DNA of 64,000 bases from positions 110,438 through 174,437 of the IMG/VR virus record IMGVR_UViG_3300008116_000011, one strand, 5' to 3'. The DNA is from a virus. Numbering within the stretch: the stretch's first letter is position 1; each line of letters begins with the position of its first letter. Both the position numbers and the translations under genes were made by a program. The notes below the pieces were generated by a model. It was given only the letters and a program-made list of their open reading frames with translations. It searched no databases and was not told the DNA's origin. Shown here piece after piece: positions 4,405 through 57,775 of the stretch.

Positions 4405-4415
4405 GGATATAAATA
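4358..4415 (-). repeat. Dispersed 58-bp repeat copy 1 (late-promoter motif + start + leader codons)
   Basis: 53/58 identical to 57718-57775 by manual alignment. Confidence 0.9.
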
Positions 4416-25151: not shown

Positions 25152-26027
25152 TTACAGATTTCCTGCTCTTATATTGTTAATATTTTTAACTACTTCGTTT
25201 GTAATAGAAACAGTAGATTTAGAAAAGAATTGACGTTTACCATTTGTAGCTAAATCTTTATTCATATTATCAGGAATAATATAACCATATAAAGTTATAC
25301 TCATATTTGTTCTTGCAACACGTTGTTCATTTACAGAATATTCAGCTGTTGAATCAAATCTGTCTATGTATGTTCTAAATTGAAATCTATTTTTATCTCC
25401 CCAATATGAATCAGAAGCAAATTCTATTGATTCAATTATCTTATTATTTTCCTGCATGTAATTTGTAAATACAATACAATCATATGTCAAGTTAATATAA
25501 TCAGGGACTGGGGTTAGATAGAATTTATCAGAGGGAATCCAGTTATTTAGTATATCAAAAGGAGTATATTGATTTTGTTGGTTATATCTTGCTTTGGAAA
25601 CAGCAAAATTATTTACATTATTACCATCTAATTTATTAGCTAATGTTCTATTTTTTTCAAATCCTGTTCTCCTTATCATAATGATAGGATACATGATCTT
25701 ACCGTTTTTATCCCTCCAATATCCATCTTGTTGAACAGAAACCCAACGTTCTTGAGAACCATAACTTACAGGAACATTAAATTTATTACCATTTTGAATT
25801 ACAGTAGGTTTAATTACATTATTAAAATAATAAAATACAGCTTCATCTATGTCTTGTAACCCAATAGTAAATGGTTTAATATCATTTTCGATATCAACCG
25901 AAATTTGATTTGCACGAGTGATTTTTTCCTCAGGCAAAAAAGGTTGAGTTCCAGGAATATAAGGATCAATTTGATCTCTTACTCTTTCAGCTGGTGTATT
26001 TGGTAGTATGGGTAGTTGTCTTGGCAT
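25152..26027 (-). CDS. Tail terminator / sheath stabiliser (gp15-like)
   Basis: VPVSYGSQERW, PIIMI.R, P.YINLTY motifs; downstream of neck genes. Confidence 0.65.
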   Translation of the reverse strand: MPRQLPILPNTPAERVRDQIDPYIPGTQPFLPEEKITRANQISVDIENDIKPFTIGLQDIDEAVFYYFNNVIKPTVIQNGNKFNVPVSYGSQERWVSVQQDGYWRDKNGKIMYPIIMIRRTGFEKNRTLANKLDGNNVNNFAVSKARYNQQNQYTPFDILNNWIPSDKFYLTPVPDYINLTYDCIVFTNYMQENNKIIESIEFASDSYWGDKNRFQFRTYIDRFDSTAEYSVNEQRVARTNMSITLYGYIIPDNMNKDLATNGKRQFFSKSTVSITNEVVKNINNIRAGNL

Positions 26028-26524
26028 TATCTAGATTGAGTTATACCTAATAGTTCAGGAGAAACATAATGAGCAAAGCATATAATAGAAAAACTAGCAC
26101 CAAAATTATCTAGGTATTCACCTCCATAATTGTATTGAGGTACTTTACCTACTATATCTTGATTTTCGTTTACTAAATTTACTTCATAATAATCATTATT
26201 CCATAATATAATATCACCTATTTGAGGTACTACATTTTGTAATACTAAATCACTACGCAAAAATCTAAATCCAAAATTTCTTGTAATATCAGGACCTAAA
26301 CTATCATAATTACCTTCATAATCTCCTCTATCAATTAAACATTGAATCAATACAGGAGGAAGATACATTTTAGTACCGTTAGCAGCTTCACCATAAACAT
26401 TTTGAGGAGTTTCTTGTAGTGATATTTGATAATATCCTACATTTTGCTCAATAATGTTATGTATCAACTCAGTGTTGATAACATGAAAAAATGAAATATC
26501 GCGAGCGCTACCGTATAAAGCCAT
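26027..26524 (-). CDS. Head closure/neck protein (gp14-like)
   Basis: NVYGEA..K.Y..PV, P.IGDII.WN..YYEV. Confidence 0.65.
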   Translation of the reverse strand: MALYGSARDISFFHVINTELIHNIIEQNVGYYQISLQETPQNVYGEAANGTKMYLPPVLIQCLIDRGDYEGNYDSLGPDITRNFGFRFLRSDLVLQNVVPQIGDIILWNNDYYEVNLVNENQDIVGKVPQYNYGGEYLDNFGASFSIICFAHYVSPELLGITQSR

Positions 26525-26526
26525 TA

Positions 26527-26859
26527 TTAGTAATTTCTGATTTTTAATAATGTTTTTGTTCTAACATAAAACTTTAATAGTCCTGGTATTTTTAAAGCTT
26601 CATGTTTGATCATTTTGATAGTATTTATAGCATTACCTTCAGAAATAAATTTTATTTCTAATAAGGTATATTTGTAATCATCCGTTGAAGTAGCATCTAA
26701 TTTTTCAGTATCAATTACTTTAACTACAACTACATCTCTAATACCACGAATTTGATTATATATTTCTGTAAAGTTAAAGTCGGTTCTCATTTTGATAACT
26801 ACTTGTACAAAGTATGTTTCAAATGTCGCTTCGTTTAATATAGTTTGTAATGATATCAT
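26527..26859 (-). CDS. Hypothetical protein with MISLQTILNE leader
   Basis: ORF track. Confidence 0.6.
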   Translation of the reverse strand: MISLQTILNEATFETYFVQVVIKMRTDFNFTEIYNQIRGIRDVVVVKVIDTEKLDATSTDDYKYTLLEIKFISEGNAINTIKMIKHEALKIPGLLKFYVRTKTLLKIRNY

Positions 26860-26860
26860 T

Positions 26861-28033
26861 TTAAAATATGTAAAAACCCATTGGTACGTTAGCTAATGTT
26901 TTATTTAAATTATCAGCATTTGCTGCTTGTTTTTCAAGTTGTTTTTGCCTTCCAGTTTCTGATAGTGTTTCTCTTAATTGTAGTAATAATGCTTCTTTTG
27001 TTGATCTAGCATCTGTAAGTAAGTCTTGTTGGTTAAGAGTAACTTCAGATCCAGGAATAGGTACTGTTGAATATTTACCTCTTACATATCCTAAAATTTC
27101 ACGACACAATGCTAGTGTATATTGATAAATCCACATTCTACCTATTGAATTAATATAATTGTAATTTGGATTACAATAAGGTACATTTGATGGATTTGTA
27201 ATAAGATTTGTTTGAGCAGATCCACTTGCATTTCTTCCTCCAACAACACTATCTCTTTCACTTCCTTTGACATATTGAATCCATAAATTATATTCAATTA
27301 AAGGAATAGGGAATATTTTAAGTTGATTATTTATAATTTCAAAAGAAAATGCTGCTTTTCTAATTTGATCATTTAATTCAATTGCTTGAATCCTTTGTAG
27401 GTCAAAAAACAAAGGCATCAATAAAAATGTGATAGCAGGTGAATAAGCACCAAATCCAAAGCTATTAAGTAAACCTTCATAGCTATATCCTATACCAACA
27501 TATGGATCAAAATATCTTAAAGCCGCTGGAGGAGCTTCAAAAAATACTCTTTTTACTTCAATATAATCTCCAGGAGCTAATGAGGCTGATTGTTGTGCCC
27601 ATTTATTTAAATCATATGATTGGGTTCCAGGCATCATTTTAACAGCGCCACTATACCATGTAACATCACCACCAACACCTGCTTCTTCACCATAATCAGA
27701 TGCAATTCTAACCATTCCTCCAAGTGAAGGAGTCATTAGTAATTGATTAAATGGACCTGAACCTGTCGGGTTACCTTCCATAGAGAGCATATTCTCTCTA
27801 ACTTGAAATTGATAAATTTCATTACCATATACAGTAACAGCTTCTTCAAAAGCAGTATATATTTGAACTGGTTGTAATTCTACAACTTCAATAGGCCATC
27901 CTAGTCGCCTTGTAACAAAAGTTACAACAGCGTCGGCATCTACTTGAAAATCATATTGATAATCGTAGAAACCAAAGGCAGTATCCCCAGGAAAAAACGA
28001 GGAACTACCAGCATATACAGGAATATTGGCCAT
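26861..28033 (-). CDS. Neck/adaptor protein (gp13-like)
   Basis: RRLGWP...VEL, Y.LAL..EILG.VRGKY..PIPG.EVTLN. Confidence 0.75.
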   Translation of the reverse strand: MANIPVYAGSSSFFPGDTAFGFYDYQYDFQVDADAVVTFVTRRLGWPIEVVELQPVQIYTAFEEAVTVYGNEIYQFQVRENMLSMEGNPTGSGPFNQLLMTPSLGGMVRIASDYGEEAGVGGDVTWYSGAVKMMPGTQSYDLNKWAQQSASLAPGDYIEVKRVFFEAPPAALRYFDPYVGIGYSYEGLLNSFGFGAYSPAITFLLMPLFFDLQRIQAIELNDQIRKAAFSFEIINNQLKIFPIPLIEYNLWIQYVKGSERDSVVGGRNASGSAQTNLITNPSNVPYCNPNYNYINSIGRMWIYQYTLALCREILGYVRGKYSTVPIPGSEVTLNQQDLLTDARSTKEALLLQLRETLSETGRQKQLEKQAANADNLNKTLANVPMGFYIF

Positions 28034-37067: not shown

Positions 37068-38741
37068 TTAAGCAATACCAAGGGCGTTTAAGCCATTAAC
37101 AAACACTTTACCATAGAATTCAGGACGTACCATTTTCTTAGCGTAACGAGTCATGATACCTTTTCTTGGTACGAAAGTTTCTGGATCGTACACAAGAGGG
37201 GTCATCAACAATGGTACATAAGGAGCATAAACAGCACCTGATTCAAGGAACTGAGCACCTTTGTAACCCATTAAGATCACGTTATTGCTGAAGTAAGGGT
37301 TAACATATACTTTGAAACGAGAGTTCAAAGAACCGATCTTTTGGCTACCGAAGTTAAACACTTTCTCAAGATCAGCACCTGCATCAGAAGCATATCCTGG
37401 GATAGACTGCATGATAGTAGCGATCTGAGGAGAGATAACTAAGAAGTTAGCTTGACCACGAAGAGTCTTTTGTAAGATCTTGTTAGATACAGATTGTAAT
37501 ACAGTACCCAATGTTGCAAACCAACCACCTTGTGTGTTATAGAAACCACCAGTTGTAGTAGAAGTTTGAACGAAAGTTGAACCATTCCACAATTTGTTGT
37601 TTTCAGCTGACCAGTAACCAATAGTAGCTGCTTCTTCAGTTAACATAGAAAGGATTTCTAAGTCGATTTCCATTGCAATGTACTGAGAAAGAAGACCTGT
37701 TAATTCCGCTTCAGCGTCGATGTTCTGATAAGCGTTAAGGTCTTGAGCTAATTCTGGTGTCCATTGAGCCTTTAATTTACGAGTCTTAGCAACAATAGCA
37801 TCAGATTTTAACTGGATATTGATTGTTGGGATGTCGATTTGAGCAGGATCAGCGGCATTCGGAATAGCGATGTTAGTATTGTCAGCTTCGAAATCACCAC
37901 GTAAAGCAGGAGTTGTTTGCTTATTGTAGTACAATTCGATTGAACCAGAAGAGGTTGAACCAGTTAATGGGAAATTAACTACGAATTGTAATGCAGTAGC
38001 ACCACTACCACTCTGATAGTTAGTGAACTGTTGTAATACTACAGGAGCAGCAACTACAGAGCTACTTGGAATCCAAGCTTGTACTGACAAGAAGTCAGGT
38101 AAAGCTAAGTTAGAAGCTAATTGAGCATCAGATACATTGATTACATATAATGAACCAGTAGAAGACTCATAACGAGAATCCCAATCAACATCAGCTAAAG
38201 AATTAACTAAAGATGCAGAATAAGTAACAGATGCAGAGAATTGGTTAATTGAATAACCATATCTACCTTGACCATAAAGACCACCTGTTGGATCTACGTT
38301 AGTGATGTCATAATCAGTTGCCTGAACATCAGCTAATGAACCATAAAGTGATTTACCTTGCTGGAAAGGAGTTTTGTTATTACCATACTGGAAATCCAAG
38401 TAGAATACGAGGCCAGAAGGCATAGACATTGGTTGAACTGAAACGAAGTCTTTAGCTACGATTTCAGCAAATACACGGCGAACGAGTGGTAATGCGATAC
38501 CAGCCCAGTTTTCACCAGTTCCACCAAGCATAGAGTTGGTACCAGCAGTAATGTTGGTAGACTCAACTACTAATTGCTTAGCTTGGTTCTCAAGGATCAC
38601 AGCCATATTGTTTTTTTCAATTTCGCTGCCAATGCCCTCAAGAAGACCGCTCTTACTCCATTTGGTAGCAACCTTAGCAGCTTCTGCTTGTTGGCTCTTC
38701 CATGGATTAGCGCTTTCTAAAAGCATGTTTAAATTTTCCAT
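37068..38741 (-). CDS. Major capsid protein (T4 gp23-like)
   Basis: LENQ, LPLVRR, VQPM..PSGL.F, KTRKLKA.WT.E.AQDL, EIDLEI, YAPYVPL, P.KG.MTRY. Confidence 0.97.
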   Translation of the reverse strand: MENLNMLLESANPWKSQQAEAAKVATKWSKSGLLEGIGSEIEKNNMAVILENQAKQLVVESTNITAGTNSMLGGTGENWAGIALPLVRRVFAEIVAKDFVSVQPMSMPSGLVFYLDFQYGNNKTPFQQGKSLYGSLADVQATDYDITNVDPTGGLYGQGRYGYSINQFSASVTYSASLVNSLADVDWDSRYESSTGSLYVINVSDAQLASNLALPDFLSVQAWIPSSSVVAAPVVLQQFTNYQSGSGATALQFVVNFPLTGSTSSGSIELYYNKQTTPALRGDFEADNTNIAIPNAADPAQIDIPTINIQLKSDAIVAKTRKLKAQWTPELAQDLNAYQNIDAEAELTGLLSQYIAMEIDLEILSMLTEEAATIGYWSAENNKLWNGSTFVQTSTTTGGFYNTQGGWFATLGTVLQSVSNKILQKTLRGQANFLVISPQIATIMQSIPGYASDAGADLEKVFNFGSQKIGSLNSRFKVYVNPYFSNNVILMGYKGAQFLESGAVYAPYVPLLMTPLVYDPETFVPRKGIMTRYAKKMVRPEFYGKVFVNGLNALGIA

Positions 38742-38763: not shown

Positions 38764-39888
38764 TTATTTAATGTTTGCTAACTTTTTCATCCTAGCAATG
38801 AAGTCGTTACTTTCAACAATTGCTTGTTTTTGTGGAGCAACGCCTGCTGCTTTAGATGCAAATCCTAAAGATTCTTTGATATGAGCTTTTCCAGATTTAG
38901 TAGCAAATGTTTCGTTTAATGATTCATAAACAAGTTTTGCTTCTTTAGCTGATTCAGCTTTATCAAATGCTTGTACAACCTTAATTTTTTGTGATTCAGT
39001 TAAGTTTTTAGACTTAAAGATTTTGTTAACATAAAGTAACTTAGCGTTTAACAAGTTAACTTCTTGAAGTTCTTGACGAAGAGTATTTACAGTTTCAAGA
39101 GCTAAATTTAGATCTTCCTGCATTTTTTTCTTCTTCTTGTAATCTTCAACTCCTTCTTCTTCAGCAGTGTCTTTTTTATCACCACGTTTAGAAGCAGGAA
39201 CGTCACCTTTGTTACCACCGTACTTTTTGTGTTTTTTACCTTCAGTAAGCTCGGTTTCTTCATCTAACAATTCAGCTAGAATTTCATCGAGGTTTACTTC
39301 TTCAATGTCTACAACTTCATCATCGGCTGTGTCAGGTAACTCATCAGACATTTTCATATCCGCAGATACGTCTATGTTTGCGTTACCATCACCACCCATT
39401 TCTTGAGAAACTATGTCGCGGATCATAGCTTCTAATTCATCTATGGAAAGTTCAGATACTTCTTTTTCTTCCTCTTCTGATTCTTCTTCGTCGTCTTCTA
39501 CATCTTCAACGTCTTCTTCGGCTTCGATTTCTTCTTCATCTTCAGCCTTTTTAGCTTCGTTTAATTCTGCATCAAGTTCGGCGAGAATTTCATCAAGGTC
39601 GATTTCGGCGATTGAATTATCGTCGTCATCATAATTCATACCTGACATTCCTTCCATTTTTTCTTTAGCCATTTCAGCTTCGATGTCATCAGTCATCTTG
39701 TCATCTAATTCATCGATCATGTCATCTTCTGTCAAGTCGTCCATCTTTTCTTGCAATCTTGCATTGAACATAGATGTTAAACGTGGCATAAAAGCTTCTT
39801 CAAGAGCGAGTTTAGCTTGAGCAAGAGCAGTTTCGCGAACAGCTTTAGCGTCAGCAATGGCCTCCTTTAAAAGGTCTTTTGTGTTCAT
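38764..39888 (-). CDS. Prohead scaffold/core protein (gp22-like)
   Basis: Very acidic coiled coil directly upstream of the capsid gene; many LxE sites; C-terminal RMKKLANIK. Confidence 0.85.
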   Translation of the reverse strand: MNTKDLLKEAIADAKAVRETALAQAKLALEEAFMPRLTSMFNARLQEKMDDLTEDDMIDELDDKMTDDIEAEMAKEKMEGMSGMNYDDDDNSIAEIDLDEILAELDAELNEAKKAEDEEEIEAEEDVEDVEDDEEESEEEEKEVSELSIDELEAMIRDIVSQEMGGDGNANIDVSADMKMSDELPDTADDEVVDIEEVNLDEILAELLDEETELTEGKKHKKYGGNKGDVPASKRGDKKDTAEEEGVEDYKKKKKMQEDLNLALETVNTLRQELQEVNLLNAKLLYVNKIFKSKNLTESQKIKVVQAFDKAESAKEAKLVYESLNETFATKSGKAHIKESLGFASKAAGVAPQKQAIVESNDFIARMKKLANIK

Positions 39889-40043: not shown

Positions 40044-40454
40044 TTATTCAAAAGCTCTTTGGTAAGATTTAGCTGCTTCTTTTAAAGAGCTAGCGGCCCA
40101 TTTAAGTTGATATGCTGTTTCACTTAGATTATCTAATTTATTACTAATTTTTTCTAATTCACGTACATTATCAGGAATATCAAATATATCATATGGTTCA
40201 TATATATCAAAATATTCTTCAAATAATTTTTTTAAAACGTTTTCTGTATTTTCTAGATTTTGTTTAAGAGTTTCTAGTTGAGATGGATTGTTGATAACAT
40301 CACTTATACTTAAACTAGATAATTGATCCGCATAAGATTGAACTTTATCTGAAAAGAAATTTTCTTCTTTTTGAGCTTTAGCTACTAAATCATCTATGCT
40401 TTTTCTAGGAGGTGTTACTCTAGCTTCTTTTAGTATGTCATGAAGTTTAATCAT
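40044..40454 (-). CDS. Hypothetical protein with MIKLHDILKE-ARVTP leader
   Basis: ORF track; leader shared with 55391..57010. Confidence 0.65.
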   Translation of the reverse strand: MIKLHDILKEARVTPPRKSIDDLVAKAQKEENFFSDKVQSYADQLSSLSISDVINNPSQLETLKQNLENTENVLKKLFEEYFDIYEPYDIFDIPDNVRELEKISNKLDNLSETAYQLKWAASSLKEAAKSYQRAFE

Positions 40455-40965: not shown

Positions 40966-41292
40966 TTATTTTGTCTCTTTTAATCCATAAGGTATACCTA
41001 ATACTCCATGAACTGCTCTTCTAAATGCTTTTTGAGTTTCCATTTGAATTGCTTTCATTACAAGTTCTTGTAAAGCAGGATTATTAATTAATAAAGGTAT
41101 TTTTCCATTTGAAGGATCATGATAAAATGCACTTAGTTTTATTCTCATCATTCCATGATCATTAATGTAAAGTTTAACAGATGGAACATCGTCCATTAAT
41201 TCTCGATCTGGAAGGTAATTGTGTTCTTCTTCATCAACAATTCCTGCTAATTCTTGCATTCTTTTAGATTCTGTAATGAATTGTTTTGACAT
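40966..41292 (-). CDS. Hypothetical protein with leader MSKQFITESKRMQELAGI
   Basis: Shared leader family. Confidence 0.65.
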   Translation of the reverse strand: MSKQFITESKRMQELAGIVDEEEHNYLPDRELMDDVPSVKLYINDHGMMRIKLSAFYHDPSNGKIPLLINNPALQELVMKAIQMETQKAFRRAVHGVLGIPYGLKETK

Positions 41293-41297: not shown

Positions 41298-41747
41298 TTA
41301 TTTGTATGGGTTTTCCTTTGCTTTATTCCAATAAATTAAACTATCTTCACCAATAGAAAATTCATTAGAATGATTTTTTATATAATCTTCAGCATATCTC
41401 TTTAAAACATCAGCAGCTTCTGCTCCTGTCATGTCGCTAGAACCGAATGCAAATTTTTTAGTTCTATCATTTATTGAACTTCCTAAATCTAATTTTTTTT
41501 CATCACTCATTTTATTAAGAACGGGTCTGATGTTTTTTTCATAGAATGCTATTTGAGCTTTTCTATCAGCTTGTTGTTTTTGATCTAGTTGATGCACTTT
41601 AACTCCACCTAATATAGTAGCAGCTGTTAGTCCTAATCCAATAAGCCAATCTTTAAAACCTTCGTCTATTGTTTCTTCTTGATTTTCAGCAATAATGCCT
41701 GCTAGTTTTTGCATTCTTTTTGCTTCGGTAATAAATTGCTTTGACAT
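41298..41747 (-). CDS. Hypothetical protein with leader MSKQFITEAKRMQKLAGI and one hydrophobic segment
   Basis: Shared leader; WLIGLGLTAATILGGV follows IDE. Confidence 0.65.
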   Translation of the reverse strand: MSKQFITEAKRMQKLAGIIAENQEETIDEGFKDWLIGLGLTAATILGGVKVHQLDQKQQADRKAQIAFYEKNIRPVLNKMSDEKKLDLGSSINDRTKKFAFGSSDMTGAEAADVLKRYAEDYIKNHSNEFSIGEDSLIYWNKAKENPYK

Positions 41748-41759: not shown

Positions 41760-42401
41760 TTAATATCCAGGTAATTCACAAGTACAGAAACCAGCGCGAT
41801 TGCAAAGGATTTCTGTTACTAGTTCGTTAATTTTATCTAATTTCTTTTGTTCTTGTTTATTATATTGATTATATTGTTTAGATTCACTAACAATTTCCAT
41901 AAACGCACCTTGTGTTGATGGAGTTGATACGAAATCCCAACATAATAATTCAAAATCGGGTTGTACTTCAACAGTCTCACCGATTTGTTTTACAGAACCC
42001 ATACCACGAGATGAAATACCAATAGTAATACCTGCAATTAACAATGCTTTTAAAATATTACCTGATGGTGTTGGTAGTACTTCAATTTTTCCCATTACAT
42101 CATCTTTATCCCACCATAAATCTTTAATGTTATGACATACATTTTTTAAGTTGATGATTGGAGATTCTGGGTGGTCTAATTCACCTAGTGCTCTATTTTC
42201 TTTAATGTATGTGTCTTTATATTTTTGTACTTCTCTTTCAAGAGTATCTTTAGGATATACACGACCATTACCATTTTTTGCTTCAGCACGTTGTACCAAA
42301 CCTTGAACAATAAGACGTCCACCGTTGTTTTTAATAGATTCCTCCAACATTGATGGAGTAATATTAAAAGTAGTAATACGCTCTATTAATAGTTCTTTCA
42401 T
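41760..42401 (-). CDS. Prohead maturation protease (gp21-like)
   Basis: NGNGRVYP, GELDHP, GISSRG.GS, DFVSTPS. Confidence 0.95.
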   Translation of the reverse strand: MKELLIERITTFNITPSMLEESIKNNGGRLIVQGLVQRAEAKNGNGRVYPKDTLEREVQKYKDTYIKENRALGELDHPESPIINLKNVCHNIKDLWWDKDDVMGKIEVLPTPSGNILKALLIAGITIGISSRGMGSVKQIGETVEVQPDFELLCWDFVSTPSTQGAFMEIVSESKQYNQYNKQEQKKLDKINELVTEILCNRAGFCTCELPGY

Positions 42402-44032
42402 TAGTTAAGATTATATCCTTTTTCTCTCAATTTATAAATAACTTCACTCCAAACAGCATCATTATATCTTTTTCCTACACTATCTTCAAACATAGAAAAT
42501 ACATTATCTAAATCAGATAATCTAGGATTTTCAATATCATTTGTATTGATGTGGTCCATAAAATTATCTATTATCATAGAAACAGCATCTCTTCCAGATG
42601 GAGGTGCATCAAGATCTCCTTCGTAATCATCATAATCGTCAGAATTTCTTCTAACTATTAATGCACTTCTCATTTCTCTTTCAGCTTCAGGATCACCCGC
42701 AGCTTCCATTCCAGCAGGACCCATTTCATCTAATAGTTCGTTAACCATTTTTTTAATGGTTTCTTTTAATCCAGGTTTATAACTATTGCTAGACTTTCCA
42801 AGATCACTAGCGCCAGGTGAGATAGTATTAGGAAGTGCACGTCGAGCAGCATCTACAGGATTTGTAGACTGTGATGGTTTTTTCTTTTCAACTGCATCAG
42901 ATGTAAAATTAGAACCTTTATCATCAGGATCAGCATCTAATGCTTTCCTTACAGCTGATATTATTTGTTGTTTTGAAACTCCATCAAGTCCTGTATAGTT
43001 AAATATAAGTTCAAGTAGTCCATCTAATTCACCAGCCATATTTATAAGCTTAAGAGCTTGAAGTAGAGATGGTGCTTGTTGTAATCTTCTTAAAAAGGTT
43101 TGTTCATCAGGAGTGTTACTTAAAGTATTTTCTTTAATGTTTGATTCATTAAAAGCATTAGTGTCTCTTATTTTTTCAGGAGTCATTCTTGATAAAGCAG
43201 TAATGACACTATCTACATATCTACTATCAACTTGAGCTGATCTCATTGCTTTGTTTAGATATCCAACAATGTCATCTTTATATTCCTTCCATGAGCCTTG
43301 TATTCTATCTGTTACACTTATTTTTTTAACAGGATTATTTTTGTTATCTTTATAAAAAGTAATAGCAATATATTCATCCCTATTTCCTGGGCGCTCAAAG
43401 GCCATATCAAATCCAAAAGTACCATCTTGATTATTGTACCATCTTATATCAGTTAATTTAAGAGGAGACTCTTTATTTCCTGAAAAAGAGGTAGGTTGGA
43501 TAGATAATGGGTGGTTAGATAAATAGTCTTTTTGAATATTTTTTAAAGAATTAAATTCACTACTTTGAATTTCTTTATCACTAACTGAGGTTAGTTCAGT
43601 TAAACTTTTTTTAGATTCCTTAACGATACGAATTTTCTTCATTTCGTTTTTCTTATCCTTATCTTTAGCAGATTCTAAACCATCAGGTCTATTTTTGCTT
43701 TTGATTGGCTTGCTAACTTCTTCCTTAGGAATATCTGTTACAGTAGTAGCAGGATAAATACCATCTTGCTCGTCAACTTCCGGCTCTTGTACTACTTTTT
43801 TGTACTTAGCTGGTTGGGTTGGGTAGTCATATGATGGAGCTTTGTCAGGAGTGCCTTTAACAGCGTTACCTTCGTTTAATAATCCTTTAGATTTAAGGAT
43901 CTTAACTGAGTCATCAAATGAGTTATGGTTAGTTACAAAGTTAGGAAATAACATTCTTGCATTACGCAAAAATTGATGTTGGGTCATTCTTCCCTCTTTT
44001 AACTCTTGGTATTGTACGCTAATACTTTTCAT
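42401..44032 (-). CDS. Putative prohead core/internal protein
   Basis: Lies between portal and protease; repeated LNE/LTE/IKE sites. Confidence 0.55.
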   Translation of the reverse strand: MKSISVQYQELKEGRMTQHQFLRNARMLFPNFVTNHNSFDDSVKILKSKGLLNEGNAVKGTPDKAPSYDYPTQPAKYKKVVQEPEVDEQDGIYPATTVTDIPKEEVSKPIKSKNRPDGLESAKDKDKKNEMKKIRIVKESKKSLTELTSVSDKEIQSSEFNSLKNIQKDYLSNHPLSIQPTSFSGNKESPLKLTDIRWYNNQDGTFGFDMAFERPGNRDEYIAITFYKDNKNNPVKKISVTDRIQGSWKEYKDDIVGYLNKAMRSAQVDSRYVDSVITALSRMTPEKIRDTNAFNESNIKENTLSNTPDEQTFLRRLQQAPSLLQALKLINMAGELDGLLELIFNYTGLDGVSKQQIISAVRKALDADPDDKGSNFTSDAVEKKKPSQSTNPVDAARRALPNTISPGASDLGKSSNSYKPGLKETIKKMVNELLDEMGPAGMEAAGDPEAEREMRSALIVRRNSDDYDDYEGDLDAPPSGRDAVSMIIDNFMDHINTNDIENPRLSDLDNVFSMFEDSVGKRYNDAVWSEVIYKLREKGYNLN

Positions 44033-45997: not shown

Positions 45998-47860
45998 TTA
46001 TATATCTTTGATATTTGATTCGTCGAGCAATGAAGAATTGTTACCCTTTTGATCAAATACATTAGACTTTTTAAACATTTCCTCAAGCATCTTTTTATTT
46101 TGAGCATATACCGCTTTAGTATTTTCTAAAGCTAGTGGTGAACCACCTTTAGGTTCAGGAGCTCTAGCAGAATCCGGGTGAAGATCTACTTCTTTACCTA
46201 ATGGATCCTTACCTAACACGCGCTTTTGAGTGTTATAAACAGATGTTTTCTCTTGAGGACGCCCAATAGGGTTAGTCTCATCATAGGCAGGCGGTACTCC
46301 GACCCCGTTACGACCTTTACCATACAATGAGGCTAAATCATGTGGCGTTCCATATGATTGTCCACTAGTTAACGGGTCATTTCCTTCGTTTTCAATTTGT
46401 GATAGACGGAACATGCGTTTTTTATCTTCAACTACTAAATCACGCATTTCCTCATATTTGTCATCACTCATATGGAATAGATAATCATAAATGTAGTCAG
46501 TTGGGAACAAACTAGCATCCATAATATTTTTAGCTAAGTCAACCTTTTCTTTCATCAACGCAATTCTTTCTTGATCGTAAACGATAGAAGGAGTCGTTAA
46601 TTCTAATTCAAAGTTTGTTAAATTCTCATCAGTATAACCTTGAGAATATAAATGTACTAACGCGATTTTAGTTAATTCACTAACAACAATACGTTGTATA
46701 CGCTCAATTGTACGAGCAAAACGAATATCTTGTTGTGCTAGTGTAGATTTACCTTCAACATCAGCTTCATATCCTAAGAATGCCTTAGGAACTTTCATAG
46801 CAGCTAACATTTTATCTCTTAAATAAACAACATCTTCAATTGCATTATACTCAAGACCAGGTAATGTATCAATTTTAGTATTTGTATTTCCACCTCTAAC
46901 TGGTATGTAGAAATCTTCATTTACATTCATCATGTTATAACGAAGGTTATATTCACCAGTTTTAGGATCAGTAAATGGAGTACGTTGAGTTTGTGTTTTC
47001 AACTTTTCCATAAACTGAGGGATTTCGTTTGGTGGAATGTTTCCGGTATCAACGTAGTAAACACGGCGTTGAGGTGCTCTCAAAATACGGTGAATTAACA
47101 TTGCATCTTCCATCAATGCTAATTGCTTAAATATTTTACGAGCAGGTTCAATATATGAACGACCATAAGGAAGGAAATTATAATCTCCTAATAGTCTAAA
47201 GTTTGCTATTTCAAAGTTTTGGAATACAACATCGTTATCTGATGATGGGCTTATAATTCCAGAGTATGCAGCGTTTGGTGACACTTTAAATTGCACATAT
47301 GCTGGATTTTTAGGGTCAAGTCCTTCTTCTCTAATTACATTATACACATTGAGAGGAATTACTTGATAAACACCATATTTTTCTGCAATGTGGAGGTGTA
47401 GATATAAGTCACCGTATTTACACATTGAGCGAACCCAACCCCAAAGATTAAATTCAATATTTAATACATCATAGAATAGATTGTATAATATTCTTTGAAT
47501 ATTTTCGTCAGGTGATTTGATAGCTAATACTTCACCAGCACCATTTTTAAGTGTAGATTCATCAGCTACAATATCTAATACAGAAGCTACGATTGGATCA
47601 CCATCCATTACTTCGTAGTCATTATATAATTGAGGTCTTAATACAGTATAATTAGAATAAGGAGCATTACCAACATAAGTACCTAAACCACCAGTATATA
47701 TGCGTTGGTACCTGTCAGGGTACATGTTTGTTTGTACAACTCCTGTTGATTGTATATGGTCGGTATCAATTACTGTTACTTGACTACCTCCAACATTGCG
47801 TATAATTACGTCAGTTGAAAATAATCGTTTGAGTCTACCAAATAAAGATGTGTCTATCAT
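45998..47860 (-). CDS. Portal protein (gp20-like); start probably MIDT at 47860
   Basis: PYGRS..E.AR, MEDAMLIHR..RAP.RRVYY.D.GN.P, EDFYIPVRG, IDTLPG. Confidence 0.95.
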   Translation of the reverse strand: MIDTSLFGRLKRLFSTDVIIRNVGGSQVTVIDTDHIQSTGVVQTNMYPDRYQRIYTGGLGTYVGNAPYSNYTVLRPQLYNDYEVMDGDPIVASVLDIVADESTLKNGAGEVLAIKSPDENIQRILYNLFYDVLNIEFNLWGWVRSMCKYGDLYLHLHIAEKYGVYQVIPLNVYNVIREEGLDPKNPAYVQFKVSPNAAYSGIISPSSDNDVVFQNFEIANFRLLGDYNFLPYGRSYIEPARKIFKQLALMEDAMLIHRILRAPQRRVYYVDTGNIPPNEIPQFMEKLKTQTQRTPFTDPKTGEYNLRYNMMNVNEDFYIPVRGGNTNTKIDTLPGLEYNAIEDVVYLRDKMLAAMKVPKAFLGYEADVEGKSTLAQQDIRFARTIERIQRIVVSELTKIALVHLYSQGYTDENLTNFELELTTPSIVYDQERIALMKEKVDLAKNIMDASLFPTDYIYDYLFHMSDDKYEEMRDLVVEDKKRMFRLSQIENEGNDPLTSGQSYGTPHDLASLYGKGRNGVGVPPAYDETNPIGRPQEKTSVYNTQKRVLGKDPLGKEVDLHPDSARAPEPKGGSPLALENTKAVYAQNKKMLEEMFKKSNVFDQKGNNSSLLDESNIKDI

Positions 47861-47874
47861 GTGTATAAATATTT

Positions 47875-49455
47875 TTATCCTAATAACCAACTAATATCTT
47901 CAGATCCATGGTCAGTAGGTATTTTATAAGGATTTGGTCGTCCACCACCAAAAGCATTATATGAATTCATATGTCCCCTGTCAACTGAAAAACCAGACAT
48001 TATTGCTCTGTCTTGTTCTATATTACTTTTTCTAAATCTTAATGCAGTATCGCGCAAATATAGTCCCATAGAAAATGACATTACTAAATCATCATTGTAT
48101 CCATCTTGAGCTTGTGCTTTACTATTTTTCCAAATGAAAACCTTCATTTCTTCTATTAATCGTTTTGAGCGTATCACACATGATTTTTCATGAGCGTATT
48201 CTCTAAATTTTTCAATCATTAATGGTCTAGTTTTTACAGATGTTGTAAAACCAGCTACTAGATTATTATTATTCTCATATCGTCTAGCCCATTGGTCAGA
48301 TGTCATTGCATCTTGTTTTGGAGAGTAATACAAATTTCTATATCCTCTATCAATAGCTGTTTGTACTGTATCCCAACCTACGTTAGCATTTTCTATTGAT
48401 AATAAAGCATCATTATATTCTGCTGCTAAACCTACTAACATATGTCCATAATCACGAGTACCAATTTGGCCTCTATATTCTGCTACTTGAGTTGCTGATT
48501 CGACATCAAAAACATGACATGCAGAATAATCTTTTCCATCTCCTCTAGCTACGTCGGCTACTACTAAGTAACTTTTATTATAATCTGGTTGTTCCCATAT
48601 CCATAAGTTACCATCTACTCCTCTTTTTTCAAGAGGATCCATCATATTAGCTTCAAACCAACCTATAATTTCAGGCTCAAATACTGTATCACCTGATGTT
48701 GCAAAGTCACAATCACACTCTTGAGCAGCTAATCTAATTCCTAAATCATTATCTTGTCTATCTCTCCAAATTTGATCTCTTTCGGGGTGTACACTCCAAG
48801 GTAATCTAATAGGTACAAATGAATTATCTCCAATTTCTGATTTTTGCCATGTTTGGTGAAACCAGTTACCTGTGCCATTGGGGGTAGATAATGCTATACA
48901 ACCACCACCCGTAGCTAATGTTTGTTGAGCAGAAGCAAATATTTCATCAATGTTTTCAATGAACGCAGCCTCATCTATTATAAGTAAAGATACAGCTTCA
49001 GATCTACCAGCATCACCTGCTGCTGAAACTGCTTTTACTTGAGACCCATTTGCCAATTTAAGTAAAAGTTTATTGTTCTCCAAAGGTTTTTCAACCCCCT
49101 TTAGCCATGAAGGTAGATTATCGTACATAAATCGTACTTTAGTAACCATGTTTTTAGCTGTGTCTTGTTTAGTTGCGATACACAACACGTTTTTATCTTT
49201 ATGGAATAACATCATCCATAAAGAGAAACCAGCTACAAGAGTAGAGATACCTAACTGGCGAGATTTAAGTACTATATTATAGTTATTTTTCTGGAATTGG
49301 TATAATACTTTTTCTTGGAAAGGATATAAGTTAAATTGTATGCGACCCCTAGTTGGGTGTTGAATCATACAATATTTCTTCATGAAATGGGCAGGATCAG
49401 TCATACATTTAATGTATTCCTGCTTGATTATGTCTTTAATATTTTGATCGCTCAT
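47875..49455 (-). CDS. Terminase large subunit (gp17-like)
   Basis: KSRQLGIST, LIIDEAAF, STPNG, ADVARG.G.DYS, DDLVMS. Confidence 0.96.
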   Translation of the reverse strand: MSDQNIKDIIKQEYIKCMTDPAHFMKKYCMIQHPTRGRIQFNLYPFQEKVLYQFQKNNYNIVLKSRQLGISTLVAGFSLWMMLFHKDKNVLCIATKQDTAKNMVTKVRFMYDNLPSWLKGVEKPLENNKLLLKLANGSQVKAVSAAGDAGRSEAVSLLIIDEAAFIENIDEIFASAQQTLATGGGCIALSTPNGTGNWFHQTWQKSEIGDNSFVPIRLPWSVHPERDQIWRDRQDNDLGIRLAAQECDCDFATSGDTVFEPEIIGWFEANMMDPLEKRGVDGNLWIWEQPDYNKSYLVVADVARGDGKDYSACHVFDVESATQVAEYRGQIGTRDYGHMLVGLAAEYNDALLSIENANVGWDTVQTAIDRGYRNLYYSPKQDAMTSDQWARRYENNNNLVAGFTTSVKTRPLMIEKFREYAHEKSCVIRSKRLIEEMKVFIWKNSKAQAQDGYNDDLVMSFSMGLYLRDTALRFRKSNIEQDRAIMSGFSVDRGHMNSYNAFGGGRPNPYKIPTDHGSEDISWLLG

Positions 49456-49483
49456 TAGCGCGTTTATATATAAATATATAATT

Positions 49484-49545: not shown

Positions 49546-50544
49546 TTAATCTTCATAATAAGGTTCTTCCTCATAATCTTCAGGAGGTTGTTCTTCATTA
49601 TTTATTCTATCCATTTCTTTAATAGCATATGCTTTAGCATCTTCTATACTATCAAACATTTCTGAGTCTTTAACTTTAGCATTTACTTCATCAGAACGCA
49701 CCATGTATTTTTTATTAGGAAATTTAAATATAATAACAAGATGGTAATCATTTTGCCATGCTATATTATATGAATAAGGGCGTTCATAATATCCTATAAC
49801 AACTCCATCTACTGGGTCGTAATATTCTTCCCCAATATCTGTGCTATCTGCTTTCCAACTATCTGGGAGTGAAATATTAAGAAGATTTTCTGGTTTAGCT
49901 ATAGATGTAGTAGGTACAATTTTAGATTCATTGGTACCAGCATATTCTTGAGCAGCATCTGCTAAAGAGTCTGATACTGCTTCTCTATCACTAGTATCAT
50001 AATCTATGCCCCAAAAAGTATAAATAATTCCATATGATGTTGCTATTTTATCATCATACTCTTCTTTATCTATATCACTTAGATTATTATATCTATCATC
50101 AGGTATAGTCCACTCATCTTCAGTCTTATTATAAGTAAATCCAGCATCTAATAAATTTTTAACTAATTGAGGAGCAAAGTTATCCATTACTCTAAAGTGA
50201 GTAATTATGTTAGTATAATCTGTAATAGTGTCTACAATGTTTTCTTCATCATTACTAGAATCCTCCTCAATTATATCTATTAAAGAATCTGCTATATCGT
50301 TGTTTACTTGAGGACTATCAACTGTTTCTTTAAATCCTCGATAAAGAATATCATTACTATCTATTTCATTAAAATATTCTTGTTTAGTATCTGCAATAAT
50401 ATTTATTATATTTTGAATATCATTTCCTGTAAATCCATATTTTTTTAGAGTAAACAGTTTATTATTACCAGGTACAACTCTAGCCTCATTAATACCTGCT
50501 AATTTTTGCAAACGTTGAGCTTCTACTATGAATTGTTTTTTCAT
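49546..50544 (-). CDS. Acidic two-module putative cargo polyprotein
   Basis: Leader ..EAQRLQKLAGINE-ARVVP and internal TNE-SKIVP at residue 206. Confidence 0.65.
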   Translation of the reverse strand: MKKQFIVEAQRLQKLAGINEARVVPGNNKLFTLKKYGFTGNDIQNIINIIADTKQEYFNEIDSNDILYRGFKETVDSPQVNNDIADSLIDIIEEDSSNDEENIVDTITDYTNIITHFRVMDNFAPQLVKNLLDAGFTYNKTEDEWTIPDDRYNNLSDIDKEEYDDKIATSYGIIYTFWGIDYDTSDREAVSDSLADAAQEYAGTNESKIVPTTSIAKPENLLNISLPDSWKADSTDIGEEYYDPVDGVVIGYYERPYSYNIAWQNDYHLVIIFKFPNKKYMVRSDEVNAKVKDSEMFDSIEDAKAYAIKEMDRINNEEQPPEDYEEEPYYED

Positions 50545-53466: not shown

Positions 53467-54807
53467 TTAAATGTTCATATTCATTAGATCAATAAGTATT
53501 TCTTTTCTAATTAAACTCTCAGCTACATAAATTCCTTGTGCACCGGATACAGTAATACCACGAGCGCTTAAGGCATCACCTACAAAGTGTACATCAGGAA
53601 ATGATGTTAATGATAGATCATGGTAATTAACTAAAGGCTCAGGTGATAGATATTTTACTTCAGGCATATAAATACCCCAATCATCTCCCATTTCAGGAAA
53701 TACTAATTGCATATCATCAATAAACTTCTTAATATGTTGAGCATATTCTTCACCAAAAGCTTCAAACAAAGGATCTAATGTATCTACAGGAACAGCAGAT
53801 ACTATACTACCTTCAGATGTAATTCCAGGTTGACGAGTATTATTAGGTGAATAATAAGTTCCAGTACCATTAATTTGAAGTTTTTTAACTGCCTCTCTAC
53901 TCCATTCAAATGGATTTTCAATACCCTTAATTTCCATCAATATACCAAAATTGGTCATATCGTTCCTGAATTCCTCTCCTTTTTTTGCGTGGCCATTATA
54001 ACTAATATTGCCATAAGTTTTTTCAACAGCCACATAAGCAGCGTTATTGTTAGTACAAAAACTACGAAGAGAAACGTTATCAAATTTCTGATAAAGCTTA
54101 AAATCATAGGATACATCAATTAATTTTTGAAAATATTTTTGTGGTGCTTCAAAACGAACTCCAATTTGTACTGATTTAGGTTCAGTAGGTAATTGATAGT
54201 CATTAGATAATTTTTGTGCAAAGTCAATACCTGATTTTCCTACAGCAAATATTAGTGTATCATAAGATACTCCTACTAGGTGAGAATGAAGTTTACGAAG
54301 CTGTATAATATTTTCTTTAAAATTGATTTTATAAACATCTGTATTCCAATGAAATGTAATACCTTTATCTAGTAAATATTGGTACCATGCTTTAGCAATT
54401 TCATGTAAATAATTAGAACCAATATGCCATACAGGAAACATTCTTAAACCAAAATATGGTTTAATAAATTCAGGTTCTTCCTCAGGATTAGACATGAATA
54501 TTTCTTCTGGTTTAGGGTGGAATCGTCTGAAATTAGATATTACCTGGTCCATTAATTCCATTGCTTTTTCTTCACCACAATATTTTGACAATTGACCTCC
54601 AATTGCTGTGTGGTAAGTTAATTTACCATCAGACCAACCGCCAGCACCTAACATACCTGTCATTACTTCTTCAGGTCTACGGTGATGTGGGTCATTACCT
54701 TTGTCAATAATAGTAATTAAATTACCAGGGTATCCCTTATCTACAAGTTTAGTTGCCGCGTTGATACCAGCTACGCCGGCTCCTACAATTACAATTCTTT
54801 TATCCAT
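53467..54807 (-). CDS. FAD-dependent oxidoreductase
   Basis: IVGAGVAG Rossmann motif, GAGGWSDGKL, IGVRFE, FVGD...RGI. Confidence 0.88.
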   Translation of the reverse strand: MDKRIVIVGAGVAGINAATKLVDKGYPGNLITIIDKGNDPHHRRPEEVMTGMLGAGGWSDGKLTYHTAIGGQLSKYCGEEKAMELMDQVISNFRRFHPKPEEIFMSNPEEEPEFIKPYFGLRMFPVWHIGSNYLHEIAKAWYQYLLDKGITFHWNTDVYKINFKENIIQLRKLHSHLVGVSYDTLIFAVGKSGIDFAQKLSNDYQLPTEPKSVQIGVRFEAPQKYFQKLIDVSYDFKLYQKFDNVSLRSFCTNNNAAYVAVEKTYGNISYNGHAKKGEEFRNDMTNFGILMEIKGIENPFEWSREAVKKLQINGTGTYYSPNNTRQPGITSEGSIVSAVPVDTLDPLFEAFGEEYAQHIKKFIDDMQLVFPEMGDDWGIYMPEVKYLSPEPLVNYHDLSLTSFPDVHFVGDALSARGITVSGAQGIYVAESLIRKEILIDLMNMNI

Positions 54808-55265
54808 ATCGGTTTATTGTTTAATTTATTCCAAGTTAAATTTTTAATTTTTACTTTATCTTCAATATAATAAGTTTTATATGCTTTGATAGTATCTTCG
54901 TTTTTATATTCCTCAGGCATTGCTTGTGGTGGTGGTGTAAATCCATTATCAGGAATATTTGGTTCATTATCACGACACCATTCAATTACATCTTGTGTTT
55001 TGTGATGTTTACCATAACGTTTAGTAAATTCATAACATACTTCAAGACCATGTTGTACAAGCCAACGATAATGTTGAATTGATTCACGTACCCATTTAGT
55101 TGATGGGTGATTAAAATGAGCACGTTTATAAGGTGCTTCACCACCAACAGCCCAATGAGTAGTACATAACATTTGTGCTGATTCAATTTGCATTTTGCGA
55201 ATGTGGTCATCACAAAGTTCTTGTGCAGCAATTATTGGATTGTCATTAATGTAAAATATATTCAT
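54789..55265 (-). CDS. Pyrimidine-dimer DNA glycosylase-like protein
   Basis: MNIF..D..P...A...CD.H..KM..E.AQML, HPST.W, PQAMP. Confidence 0.75.
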   Translation of the reverse strand: MNIFYINDNPIIAAQELCDDHIRKMQIESAQMLCTTHWAVGGEAPYKRAHFNHPSTKWVRESIQHYRWLVQHGLEVCYEFTKRYGKHHKTQDVIEWCRDNEPNIPDNGFTPPPQAMPEEYKNEDTIKAYKTYYIEDKVKIKNLTWNKLNNKPIWIKEL

Positions 55266-55390: not shown

Positions 55391-57010
55391 TTATTCCCAA
55401 TCTTTTTTTAATTCTTCCATCAATTCAACAGCACGTTTTTGAGCTCCATAGAATGAATTATATTCTCCTTCACTAATAAAATCACCAAAGGCATAATTCC
55501 CCATTACATTAAACTTGCCATTTATTTTTTTAAAAATATAAATAACATCTGAGTGGGTTTTATCCCACCCTTCCATAGGAGCTTCGTATGCTTCTATAAG
55601 TTCTCCATATGGATCATATGGGTCATATCCAAATTCTTCAGCATCTTCATCATAATTATTTTCATTATATTCATCTATACTACTTTTATCCCATTTAGAC
55701 CACCCATCAGGAGTTTTTATTGGGCTAGCAGGGACCACACGTGCTTCATCTAGATTATTTTTAAATGGAAATCCATCTGGTTTAGATGTTAGCCAATAAC
55801 TCATTTCTTGTCTAGCCCAATCTTCTACTTCTTGATCTGTAACCTTTGCTGCATCCTCAAATCTGTTAAATCCATCAAAGAAATAAGTAGAGGATTCATC
55901 ATATCCTTCTGAGTCATCCATAAATGAATCAACAGATTCAATTTCTTCAGGATCAATTACTGATTTAAGGTAATTAGCAATAGCTTCAGAGTTTATTTCT
56001 AGGTTTTTACTTCCATTTTTATTATAACTTAATGTAATATATTTAGGTTTCATTCCAACAGGCATAACACGTGCTTCACTTATTTCATCTAATTTTATAT
56101 CAGTAAATCTAGTAACATAATCTACAAACTCTTCAGTACAATCTTCACCATCAACATATATTTTTTTATATTTTTTATAGTAGTCTACCAATATATCACC
56201 TTCTCCTACAGTTACTGTGTTAACTACTAAACTTTCATTAGAAAACTTAGGGGTATTTATTTCATCTTTAGACATTATATCAAAACTATGAAAAAATTCA
56301 GGATCAACATCATAATAATCTTGAAGTTTTTTTACTAAATCTGCTCGTTTAAGTGATGCCATTGGAGCTGGGACTATACGTGCTTCAAGTAGATTTTTTT
56401 GCAATTCTCTTTGTGCATAATCTACAAATTCATTACTGGCAAAATAAGATTCAGAATCAGGAAATGAATCTGTGCCATAATATTCATTCTCTAATTTGTA
56501 ATATATTAAATCTTCTATATCTTTATATGAAAATTGTCCTTTGCTATCAACATATTCATTTTCATAATCACTACCATAGTACTTAGACACTAATTTTCTT
56601 ATATCACCAATATCAATAGAATCTAAGTAAGATCTCCAAAATAATCTAGCTAAATATAATTGTACTTCTTTATTATCTTCGACAAATTCAAGTAGTTCCT
56701 TATCAGTTAATAAACTAACATTAGCTCTAGTAACAATATCCGATTCACCTCCTCTTACAATTTCTGCGTTGGTTTCTATCATTTTAGATTTGATATACTT
56801 TTCAACTAAAGGACCCAATACTCTATCCTCAAACATTGCTTCAACTACTCCCATATTATTTCGATAATAATTGTTATCGGAAATAATATTAGCTATTGCC
56901 TTAGATATTATAGAATTAATCTGGTTGAAATGATCAGGACTTCCTCCGGAAAATGAAATACCTTTAGGTACAATACGTGCTTCTTTTAATATATCGTATA
57001 ATTTTTTCAT
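55391..57010 (-). CDS. Four-module acidic putative cargo polyprotein
   Basis: E-ARIVP, E-ARIVP, E-ARVMP and E-ARVVP at residues 10, 209, 312 and 422. Confidence 0.7.
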   Translation of the reverse strand: MKKLYDILKEARIVPKGISFSGGSPDHFNQINSIISKAIANIISDNNYYRNNMGVVEAMFEDRVLGPLVEKYIKSKMIETNAEIVRGGESDIVTRANVSLLTDKELLEFVEDNKEVQLYLARLFWRSYLDSIDIGDIRKLVSKYYGSDYENEYVDSKGQFSYKDIEDLIYYKLENEYYGTDSFPDSESYFASNEFVDYAQRELQKNLLEARIVPAPMASLKRADLVKKLQDYYDVDPEFFHSFDIMSKDEINTPKFSNESLVVNTVTVGEGDILVDYYKKYKKIYVDGEDCTEEFVDYVTRFTDIKLDEISEARVMPVGMKPKYITLSYNKNGSKNLEINSEAIANYLKSVIDPEEIESVDSFMDDSEGYDESSTYFFDGFNRFEDAAKVTDQEVEDWARQEMSYWLTSKPDGFPFKNNLDEARVVPASPIKTPDGWSKWDKSSIDEYNENNYDEDAEEFGYDPYDPYGELIEAYEAPMEGWDKTHSDVIYIFKKINGKFNVMGNYAFGDFISEGEYNSFYGAQKRAVELMEELKKDWE

Positions 57011-57012: not shown

Positions 57013-57372
57013 CTATCTTACAATATATTCTTGACCACCTACTTTAGCTGAGAGTATACTGCGTAGATCAATCATTCTATAACCGTTTTTTTGTGCATCA
57101 AATACAGGTAGTAGGTCTTTAGAAGCAGCATCATAAGGTAAATCACCACCTTTTAGATGTCGTCTAACACCTAAACGACCGTTTAGTGTTCTTGTAGAGC
57201 CATCAGTTCTTTTAACAAATGTTACAGTAAAAAATTCACCTTTACCTGAATTGCGAGGGTCTGTGGCTTTAATTTTATCAATTAATTCTTCACGACTAAT
57301 AGGAACTGCTTGTTCTTTAATAAGTCTTTTTACTTCAGTAAGAAGTTGTTGTTTAAATTGGCTAAGTTTCAT
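57013..57372 (-). CDS. Small SH3/WYL-like beta-barrel protein behind a helical leader
   Basis: FFTVTFVK..DGS.R....LGV...VFD....YR.I pattern. Confidence 0.6.
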   Translation of the reverse strand: MKLSQFKQQLLTEVKRLIKEQAVPISREELIDKIKATDPRNSGKGEFFTVTFVKRTDGSTRTLNGRLGVRRHLKGGDLPYDAASKDLLPVFDAQKNGYRMIDLRSILSAKVGGQEYIVR

Positions 57373-57383: not shown

Positions 57384-57764
57384 TTAAACAGGAATATAAA
57401 GCATCATATCACCATTACCATATTCTATAATTTCTAAATCATATCCGGCAACAGTAAGTTGTTTTTTTAATTCATATACATCGTCTACAACCCAATCGTC
57501 AAATTCACCAGGATCATAATCATCTCTTTGAAGTTCACATGAAAGTTTAGAGGTTCCTGGGTCCATAGAAAAATGAAATCCTTGAGGAGTAGCATAAATA
57601 GTACCACCCCATTCATCAGTAGTAAATTCAGGGCCTATTGCTTCCCATTCTTCTGCAGATATTGAACCCTTAAGAGGGCGTTTCATCCTTTGAGGCACAA
57701 TTCTAGCTTCGGTAATACCTGCTAGTTTTTGCAAACGTTGAGCTTCTGTAATATACTGCTTCAT
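57384..57764 (-). CDS. Hypothetical protein with leader MKQYITEAQRLQKLAGITE-ARIVP (start probably 57764)
   Basis: Shared leader; class B motif at 57768-57775 lies inside the ORF-track extension. Confidence 0.7.
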   Translation of the reverse strand: MKQYITEAQRLQKLAGITEARIVPQRMKRPLKGSISAEEWEAIGPEFTTDEWGGTIYATPQGFHFSMDPGTSKLSCELQRDDYDPGEFDDWVVDDVYELKKQLTVAGYDLEIIEYGNGDMMLYIPV

Positions 57765-57775
57765 GGATATAAATA
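57718..57775 (-). repeat. Dispersed 58-bp repeat copy 2
   Basis: 53/58 identical to 4358-4415. Confidence 0.9.

Follow-up and report, generated by a model that had tools for sequence, protein, structure and literature searches.

A 539-residue open reading frame (ORF) of the virus record IMGVR_UViG_3300008116_000011 (55391-57010, minus strand) probably encodes, as judged from its sequence, a polyprotein of capsid-targeted cargo that is cut by the prohead protease of the phage and delivered to the host. Coordinates refer to the 64-kb stretch of DNA that was analyzed (the window), which forms the final 64 kb of one 174,437-bp contig (G+C content 32%). From the ORF translation and HMMER comparisons, the protein consists of a short leader followed by four modules (M1, M2, M3 and M4), each of which is opened by a site of the form (L/I)-x-E|AR(I/V)xP, where the vertical bar marks the presumed cut. 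The phage is, by its gp23-, gp20-, gp21- and TerL-type genes and the likeness of its protease to T4 gp21, a distant T4-like myovirus, and its host is probably a member of the Bacteroidota. The closest known system is that of the T4 internal proteins with their capsid-targeting sequence. These are the textbook case of tag-loaded, injected head proteins that disarm host defences, with targets known for few of them.

A putative targeting leader and four junctions of one pattern

The leader (leader B, MKKLYDILKE, 56981-57010, minus strand) comprises 10 residues with a leucine at position 8 and a glutamate at position 10, and was recognized by its likeness to the T4 capsid-targeting sequence. T4 IPII starts with MKTYQEFIAE|ARV and IPIII with MKTYQEFIAE|ASV, while the polyprotein starts with MKKLYDILKE|ARIVP. 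In T4, capsid targeting requires no more than the first ten residues, among which positions 8 and 10 determine processing (PMC9026906). An earlier model-made note on this DNA (the original prediction) had proposed a targeting leader, and by comparison with IPII and IPIII the leader does appear to be a T4-type look-alike. The note had also invoked a gp21-like protease, and the phage encodes one (41760-42401, minus strand; phrog_207, E = 2e-60), which is the presumed processing enzyme. Over 143 residues it shares 35% identity with T4 gp21, whose GELNHP and GVSSRG are matched in the alignment by GELDHP and GISSRG.

T4 gp21 and its relatives cut after a glutamate that has a hydrophobic residue two positions before it (PMC9026906, PMC5694885). 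The four junctions of the polyprotein, all read on the minus strand, are LKE|ARIVP at E10 (56966-56983), LLE|ARIVP at E209 (56369-56386), ISE|ARVMP at E312 (56060-56077) and LDE|ARVVP at E422 (55730-55747); as originally described, they split the ORF into modules of 199, 103, 110 and 117 residues. Because they fit the (L/I)-x-E rule of gp21-type proteases, we infer that they are protease sites. The claim that all four junctions use identical codons was likewise borne out: E-A-R is encoded by GAAGCACGT at each, and the window contains this 9-mer exactly four times (at 56983, 56386, 56077 and 55747, minus strand), as compared with a mean of 0.10 in dinucleotide shuffles, none of 100 of which reached four. 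Given the codon usage of the genome for this triple (GAA 0.865, GCA 0.374, CGT 0.237), the probability that four EAR sites share any single common codon triple is about 0.005, and that they share this particular triple about 3.5e-5. The identity of the 9-mers within the gene is not due to chance.

The peptide motif is also strongly enriched beyond this gene. In the ORFs of the whole 174-kb genome, EAR[IV].P is found 9 times (0.03 in shuffles) and the broader E[AS][RK][IV].P 13 times (0.24 in shuffles). Twelve of these 13 sites lie within eight genes (among them the two-module gene and the second polyprotein with its neighbour, described below), the thirteenth being QESRVNP in a 1302-residue ORF (window position 7362). 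Position P3, two residues before the glutamate, is Ile or Leu at 9 of the 12 sites, where the background is 20% (p = 6e-5). Across 144 homologues there are 79 motif sites versus 4.8 in shuffles, and although the pattern searched for did not cover P3, Ile or Leu stands there in 26 of the 28 N-terminal and 33 of the 51 internal sites. At junctions 2 and 4 the upstream module ends like its stand-alone homologues and is followed only by a minimal L-x-E, and since no remnant of a leader is kept there, the sequences suggest that the cut site itself is what selection has retained. At junction 3 the site is preceded by DIKLDEISE, which is plausibly a leader-B-like remnant. The stretch YAQRELQKNLLE at junction 2 had been considered as a vestigial leader A; this was dropped because stand-alone M1 homologues end in F..FLEKEFL, so that the stretch is mostly the C-terminal helix of M1. 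A eukaryotic 2A/StopGo-like peptide, brought to mind by the ..NNP of relatives, was rejected as there is no NPGP consensus and the mechanism belongs to eukaryotic ribosomes.

The leader is one of two types that recur in the phage and appear to be linked to its scaffold. At least 12 genes of the genome start with leader A (consensus MKQ(Y/F)ITEAQRLQKLAGI(N/T)E) or leader B (consensus M(I/K)KLx(D/E/N)ILxE), and their bodies are mostly unrelated. An acidic scaffold-like protein (38764-39888, minus strand) has an N-terminus, MNTKDLLKE|A, that resembles leader B, and a C-terminus, ...ARMKKLANIK, that resembles leader A (..AQRLQKLAGI..). The same pairing of leader A and scaffold is present, with matching changes, in the cultured Flavobacterium phage vB_FspM_immuto, in which the scaffold ends in ...SEQVSRWQKLAGIIK and one gene starts with MKKQILSEQFRRMQKLAGIITE; T4 provides a parallel, as the N-terminus of its gp22 (MLKEQLIAE|A) resembles the T4 leader. 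Because leader and scaffold vary together in two phages, the leaders probably use docking sites of the scaffold in the prohead, and the sequences suggest that leader-A cargo docks where the scaffold tail docks. In L006 the loci of this pairing are 25626-26867 and 11675-12139.

Modules and their exchange at the junctions

To delimit the modules, we drew on an HMMER search over 1.84 billion representative proteins. It returned 124 matches, each to a single module or a subset of modules, and the matching stretches stop within a few residues of the junctions. Stand-alone homologues carry a leader A or B of their own, then E|[AIVL][KRT][IV]x(x)P (e.g. E|IKINNP) and then the domain. M1 (residues 11-209; 56384-56980, minus strand; isoelectric point (pI) 4.6) has stand-alone leader-B homologues of about 190-206 residues (P0048, P0083, P0121 and P0106), and M2 (residues 210-312; 56075-56383, minus strand; pI 4.5) stands alone in P0115 (107 residues, leader A) and P0136 (104 residues, leader B). 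M3, the YLKSVIDPEEIESVD domain (residues 313-422; 55745-56074, minus strand; pI 4.3), has about 45 homologues, with stand-alone forms of 115-131 residues (P0030-32, P0056, P0063 and P0124). M4, the IPxGW...APMEGWD...DW domain (residues 423-539; 55394-55744, minus strand; pI 4.3), has about 60 homologues, mostly stand-alone proteins of 105-140 residues with leader A or B, and is paralogous to the last module of the ORF at 49546-50544 (29% identity over 107 residues). In the relative L011, the M3 domain is part of a gene that directly precedes and overlaps Peptidase_S77 within the terminase/portal/protease/gp23 block, a position that ties the domain to the prohead.

The predicted structure of M4 agrees with these limits. 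Its AlphaFold2 model, built from a 45-sequence alignment, has a predicted local distance difference test score (pLDDT) of 85.8 and a predicted template modelling score of 0.78, and its residues 1-15, including ARVVP, form a coil ahead of the first strand. A single-sequence fold of the whole ORF (pLDDT 41) was too poor to yield domain boundaries. In the structural comparison that the original prediction had proposed, the motif falls in the coil before the fold in the M4 model, and the HMMER stretches stop near the junctions; the motifs are domain boundaries, and the modules are independent units.

A comparison of orthologues for gain or loss of modules at the junctions, which had also been proposed, was positive. 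Three close orthologues from the same locus, 85-100% identical in DNA, have the architectures M1|M4, M1|M2|M4 and M1|M4|new module, and the gaps between orthologues are whole modules that start and stop at junctions. M3 is not present in these three, and M2 is missing from L002 and L005, in which its deletion starts at junction 2. Clustering of the modules revealed further arrangements in relatives, such as M4|M2 in P0060, F3|F2|M2|M1|M3|F4 in P0025 and M2|M2|F1|M4 in P0028. The longest chain, P0026, has 12 modules in 1320 residues, and its gene lies in the order found here (exonuclease, a 118-residue gene, polyprotein). All breaks between modules in these relatives are at the motif. In these alignments, junctions are the only places at which modules have been added, removed, duplicated or rearranged. 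A 740-residue ORF in the relative L009 (3123-5345) contains a complete internal leader including its methionine (MRLSDVLQE|IKINQP, at about residue 628), as if two cargo genes had recently been fused in frame.

The suggestion that the conserved junction DNA serves as recombination microhomology for adding modules stood only in part. In its favor, the whole-module insertions and deletions between near-identical phages are clean and consistent with recombination at the joints, and M3 lies between the copies of an 11-nt direct repeat, GAAGCACGTGT. Against a general role, in the 12-module relative (L008) the junctions are encoded by seven codon triples, and joints that follow near-identical module ends have the same triple; in L009 the triples are all different; and other EAR sites of the present genome use GCT AGA codons. 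Conservation of the 9-mer between orthologues was discarded as a signal, because codons for conserved E, A and R residues show 91-93% identity across the orthologous genes and the junctions are conserved no better than this general closeness predicts. Judging from the codons, the shared junction DNA is a mark of recent copying or exchange in this lineage and not a general signal, although it may help the exchange of modules.

Processing, delivery and alternative explanations

On the reading that we favor, the leader would dock the entire chain to the core of the prohead, and the gp21-type protease would cut after each junction glutamate, thereby removing the leader and releasing four proteins of 12-23 kDa that start with AR(I/V)xP. 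The Pro-terminated AR(I/V)xP linker would keep the cut site outside the fold. The released proteins would remain inside the head in equimolar amounts, pass into the host together with the DNA and act early there, possibly against host defences by analogy with T4 Ip1-3. Ip1, Ip2 and Ip3 of T4 each inhibit a different GmrSD-type restriction enzyme and have only the leader in common (PMC12373910). By the same analogy, an early-acting role in the host is our best guess for the modules, and it is in this comparative sense that the word 'effectors', applied to them in the original prediction, may be used.

Several observations weigh against this reading. Lysine or threonine occupies P3 at two of the 12 motif sites of the genome. 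All four modules are strongly acidic (pI 4.3-4.6, net charge -9 to -14), whereas T4 IPII and IPIII are basic, which makes acidic cargo beside packed DNA less obvious. Four leader-B and two leader-A genes lack ARxVP, so the motif on the primed side of the cut is not needed for a leader to be present. Searches linked none of the modules to a known fold or family, so that they can be called effectors by analogy only. Specifically, the ORF had no match in PHROG, nor in Pfam at E <= 0.01, and no member of the M4 family had a PHROG match. Fold searches with M4 gave a best E of 0.9 in the PDB and 0.08 in BFVD with Foldseek, and a best Z of 5.7 in the wide VIA-align search; the weak matches to PsiB, WGR and T7 Gp1.2 were set aside as within the range of noise. 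A tblastn search with the ORF against 50,697 phage records, T4 included, gave no match at E <= 1e-3. Finally, a search of the literature brought up no virion proteomics and no measurement of cleavage or packaging, either for this phage or for its relatives. It also yielded no description of cargo polyproteins delimited by prohead-protease sites, and nothing relevant for motif strings such as QKLAGI, IKINNP and EARVVP.

A less likely alternative, though the strongest of those considered, is that the protein is packaged but only its N-terminal leader is removed, the internal E|ARxVP sites being flexible linkers left by the fusion of leader-bearing genes and the four domains forming one multidomain protein. 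Fusion would bring the opening along passively, as stand-alone homologues carry the same opening after their leaders; the leader-B-like DIKLDEISE kept at junction 3 and the complete internal leader in the 740-residue ORF of a relative are what such fusions would leave behind. A passive linker, however, has no need of the Ile or Leu found at P3 of most internal sites, and the free order and duplication of modules would be unusual in a protein that works as a single unit. Moreover, the minimal L-x-E without leader remnant at junctions 2 and 4 speaks for selection on a cut site. It is rather unlikely that the protein is instead an auxiliary core or scaffold component, like T4 gp22, gp67 and gp68, that is loaded, cut and then expelled or degraded with no delivery to the host. 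The modules are acidic, as are T4 gp67 and the scaffold, and M3 occurs in a relative in the gene upstream of the protease, which is the place of core genes in T4. In T4, however, core proteins are cut to short fragments, and such fragments and propeptides exit the capsid (PMC5694885), whereas the products predicted here are folded domains of 12-23 kDa (pLDDT 86 for M4). The locus is also highly variable between near-identical phages, which fits accessory cargo better than a part needed for assembly; the Ip locus of T-even phages is such a hotspot of variable accessory cargo (PMC12373910).

We regard it as very improbable that the protein has no association with the virion, and that leaders and motif are a shared translational, regulatory or localization element, or a recombination cassette without a role in the protein. 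The identical 9-mer at four joints could indeed reflect a constraint on the DNA, but relatives keep the peptide motif with varied codons, as in L008 and L009. In addition, the leaders match the termini of the scaffold and the T4 leaders, and one gene with the motif lies inside the head module. A separate question, which bears on the products of cleavage under the cargo reading, is whether the post-cut opening acts as a second signal, as the original prediction had proposed. The simplest reading of the sequences is that AR(I/V)xP is the half of a cargo-type junction on the primed side, an extended linker that ends in Pro and travels with each module, because stand-alone homologues share the opening and T4 IPII and IPIII have E|ARV and E|ASV. 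ARxVP is not peculiar to polyproteins, as stand-alone homologues show [IV]K[IV]NxP after the leader, and the likeliest N-terminal cut sites of the capsid protein, picked by eye (LLE|G and VVE|S), lack it. A separate second signal is less parsimonious. That the opening (AR(I/V)xP here, [IV]K[IV]NxP in many relatives) is a signal of its own, exposed after cleavage and serving head retention, the order of ejection or protection of the N-terminus, is doubtful; if true, it would define a large undescribed class of cargo, from single genes to 12-module polyproteins, with an address in two parts, the leader ahead of the cut and the signal behind it.

As a putative capsid-targeted cargo, the polyprotein can be compared with three known systems. 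T4 IPI, IPII, IPIII and Alt carry a capsid-targeting sequence that is removed by the gp21 protease (PMC9026906, PMC3012670, PMC12373910). Shared with them are a leader of 10 residues in which position 8 is hydrophobic and position 10 is Glu, A-R/S-V after the cut (in IPII and IPIII), a gp21-type protease, unrelated bodies that have the leader alone in common, and a locus that is highly variable between related phages. Unlike in T4, several bodies are here contained in one ORF with the cut-site motif at every joint, there are two leader types, the bodies are acidic instead of basic and the primed-side motif is longer and ends in Pro. The present proteins, known from sequence alone, also have no sequence homology to any T4 Ip, which would make their membership in the T4-type capsid-targeted class one of mechanism and not of descent. 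The polyvalent proteins described by Iyer et al. in 2017 (PMC5512222) similarly combine many unrelated domains in one polypeptide (2 to 15 there, four families here) with extensive shuffling. They are thought to enter the host with the DNA, and their authors liken them to processed viral polyproteins (PMC5512222). However, they contain recognizable enzyme and anti-restriction domains and an embedded zincin-like peptidase (PMC5512222), while the polyprotein here has neither a Pfam or PHROG domain nor an embedded peptidase, and its proposed cutter is a separate prohead protease acting at a fixed motif. The head and inner-body processing of phiKZ, 201phi2-1 and SPN3US (PMC5694885, PMC9026906) also involves a gp21 homologue, a short motif cut after Glu and several sites per substrate. 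There, paralogues have conserved N-terminal propeptides and the extra sites lie mostly inside long propeptides, which are cleared by the cuts; here, the sites separate folded, independently mobile modules.

These findings point to a far larger reservoir of uncultured cargo in distant T4-like phages, probably of Bacteroidota hosts, in which 2 to 12 units are strung together and cassettes are swapped at a fixed joint. If cleavage does occur, a single tag would bring a whole set of proteins into the head in equal numbers, and packaged cargo could be recognized in metagenomes by a simple sequence rule, the junction motif. In that case, one gene built with the leader and junction could also serve to fill a capsid with several foreign proteins.

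Other leader-bearing genes and the phage setting

The original prediction had listed four single-module genes opened by the same motif, two of which are as described. The cargo gene upstream of the polyprotein (57384-57764, minus strand; 126 residues) has the leader A MKQYITEAQRLQKLAGITE|ARIVP (TE|ARIVP at the cut), with TATTTATA 3 nt upstream of its ATG, and a leader-B gene (40044-40454, minus strand) starts with MIKLHDILKE|ARVTP and is part of the head module, in which it immediately precedes the scaffold gene. The leader-A gene at 4084-4404 (minus strand) reads NE|AKVVP, with AK instead of AR, and the gene at 49546-50544 (minus strand) is not a single-module gene, as it combines leader A with NE|ARVVP, a second junction NE|SKIVP (window position 49929) and the M4-like last module. 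Other leader-A genes are located at 40966-41292 and 41298-41747. Elsewhere in the genome, a second polyprotein of 660 residues (genome 3779-5761, minus strand) starts with the leader B MIKLSDILSE and has the junctions IDE|ARVLP and KKE|ARVVP, and a gene next to it opens with VKE|AKVIP. If the genome is circular, these two genes (genome 3234-5761) lie about 10 kb past the end of the window. The middle module of the second polyprotein is basic (pI 9.5) and has a weak match to DUF5872.

The head genes were identified by family searches. The gp23-type major capsid protein (37068-38741, minus strand) is 53% identical to its counterpart in vB_FspM_immuto, with remoter matches in Microcystis phage Mel-JY01 and Rhodothermus phage RM378. 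The gp20-type portal occupies about 45998-47860 and the large terminase 47875-49455 (both minus strand). As listed, the portal ORF (45998-47890) opens at a TTG; the ATG at 47860, which gives 620 residues and sits 3 nt downstream of TATTTATA, is the likelier start. The gene directly upstream of the protease (window 42401-44032; 5001-6917 in L011; 23578-24660 in L006) has an N-terminal domain, ..FLRNARM...SFDDSVKILKSKGLLNE|G, that is conserved in all relatives, and a variable, modular body that in some relatives includes DUF5661 and the M3 domain.

Next to the polyprotein, a conserved basic protein of 119 residues (57013-57372, minus strand; pI 10) has a leader-like N-terminal part reading ...RLIKE|QAVP. 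In all relatives examined (L002, L004 and L008) it immediately precedes the polyprotein, and it has a weak WYL_2/SH3-like match (E = 0.009). After the polyprotein lies a denV-like pyrimidine dimer glycosylase (54789-55265; Pyr_excise, E = 3e-7). The apparent synteny with T4 (ipIII-ipII-denV) was treated as a coincidence, as no denV-like gene is present in L002 and L004, which are close relatives.

The octamer TATTTATA, in the coding-strand reading, occurs 55 times on that strand of the whole genome versus 14 times on the other, and in 32 of the 55 cases lies no more than 36 nt upstream of the ATG of an ORF. Its positions in the window are 57768-57775, 4408-4415, 49469-49476, 47864-47871 and about 13 others, and it precedes terminase, portal, protease and tail genes as well as three leader-bearing cargo genes (with a spacer of 3 nt). 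Upstream of these genes there is no enrichment of the T4 late promoter TATAAATA in the coding-strand reading, but there is of its complement reading, TATTTATA. The octamer may be a late-gene promoter or a translation-start element.

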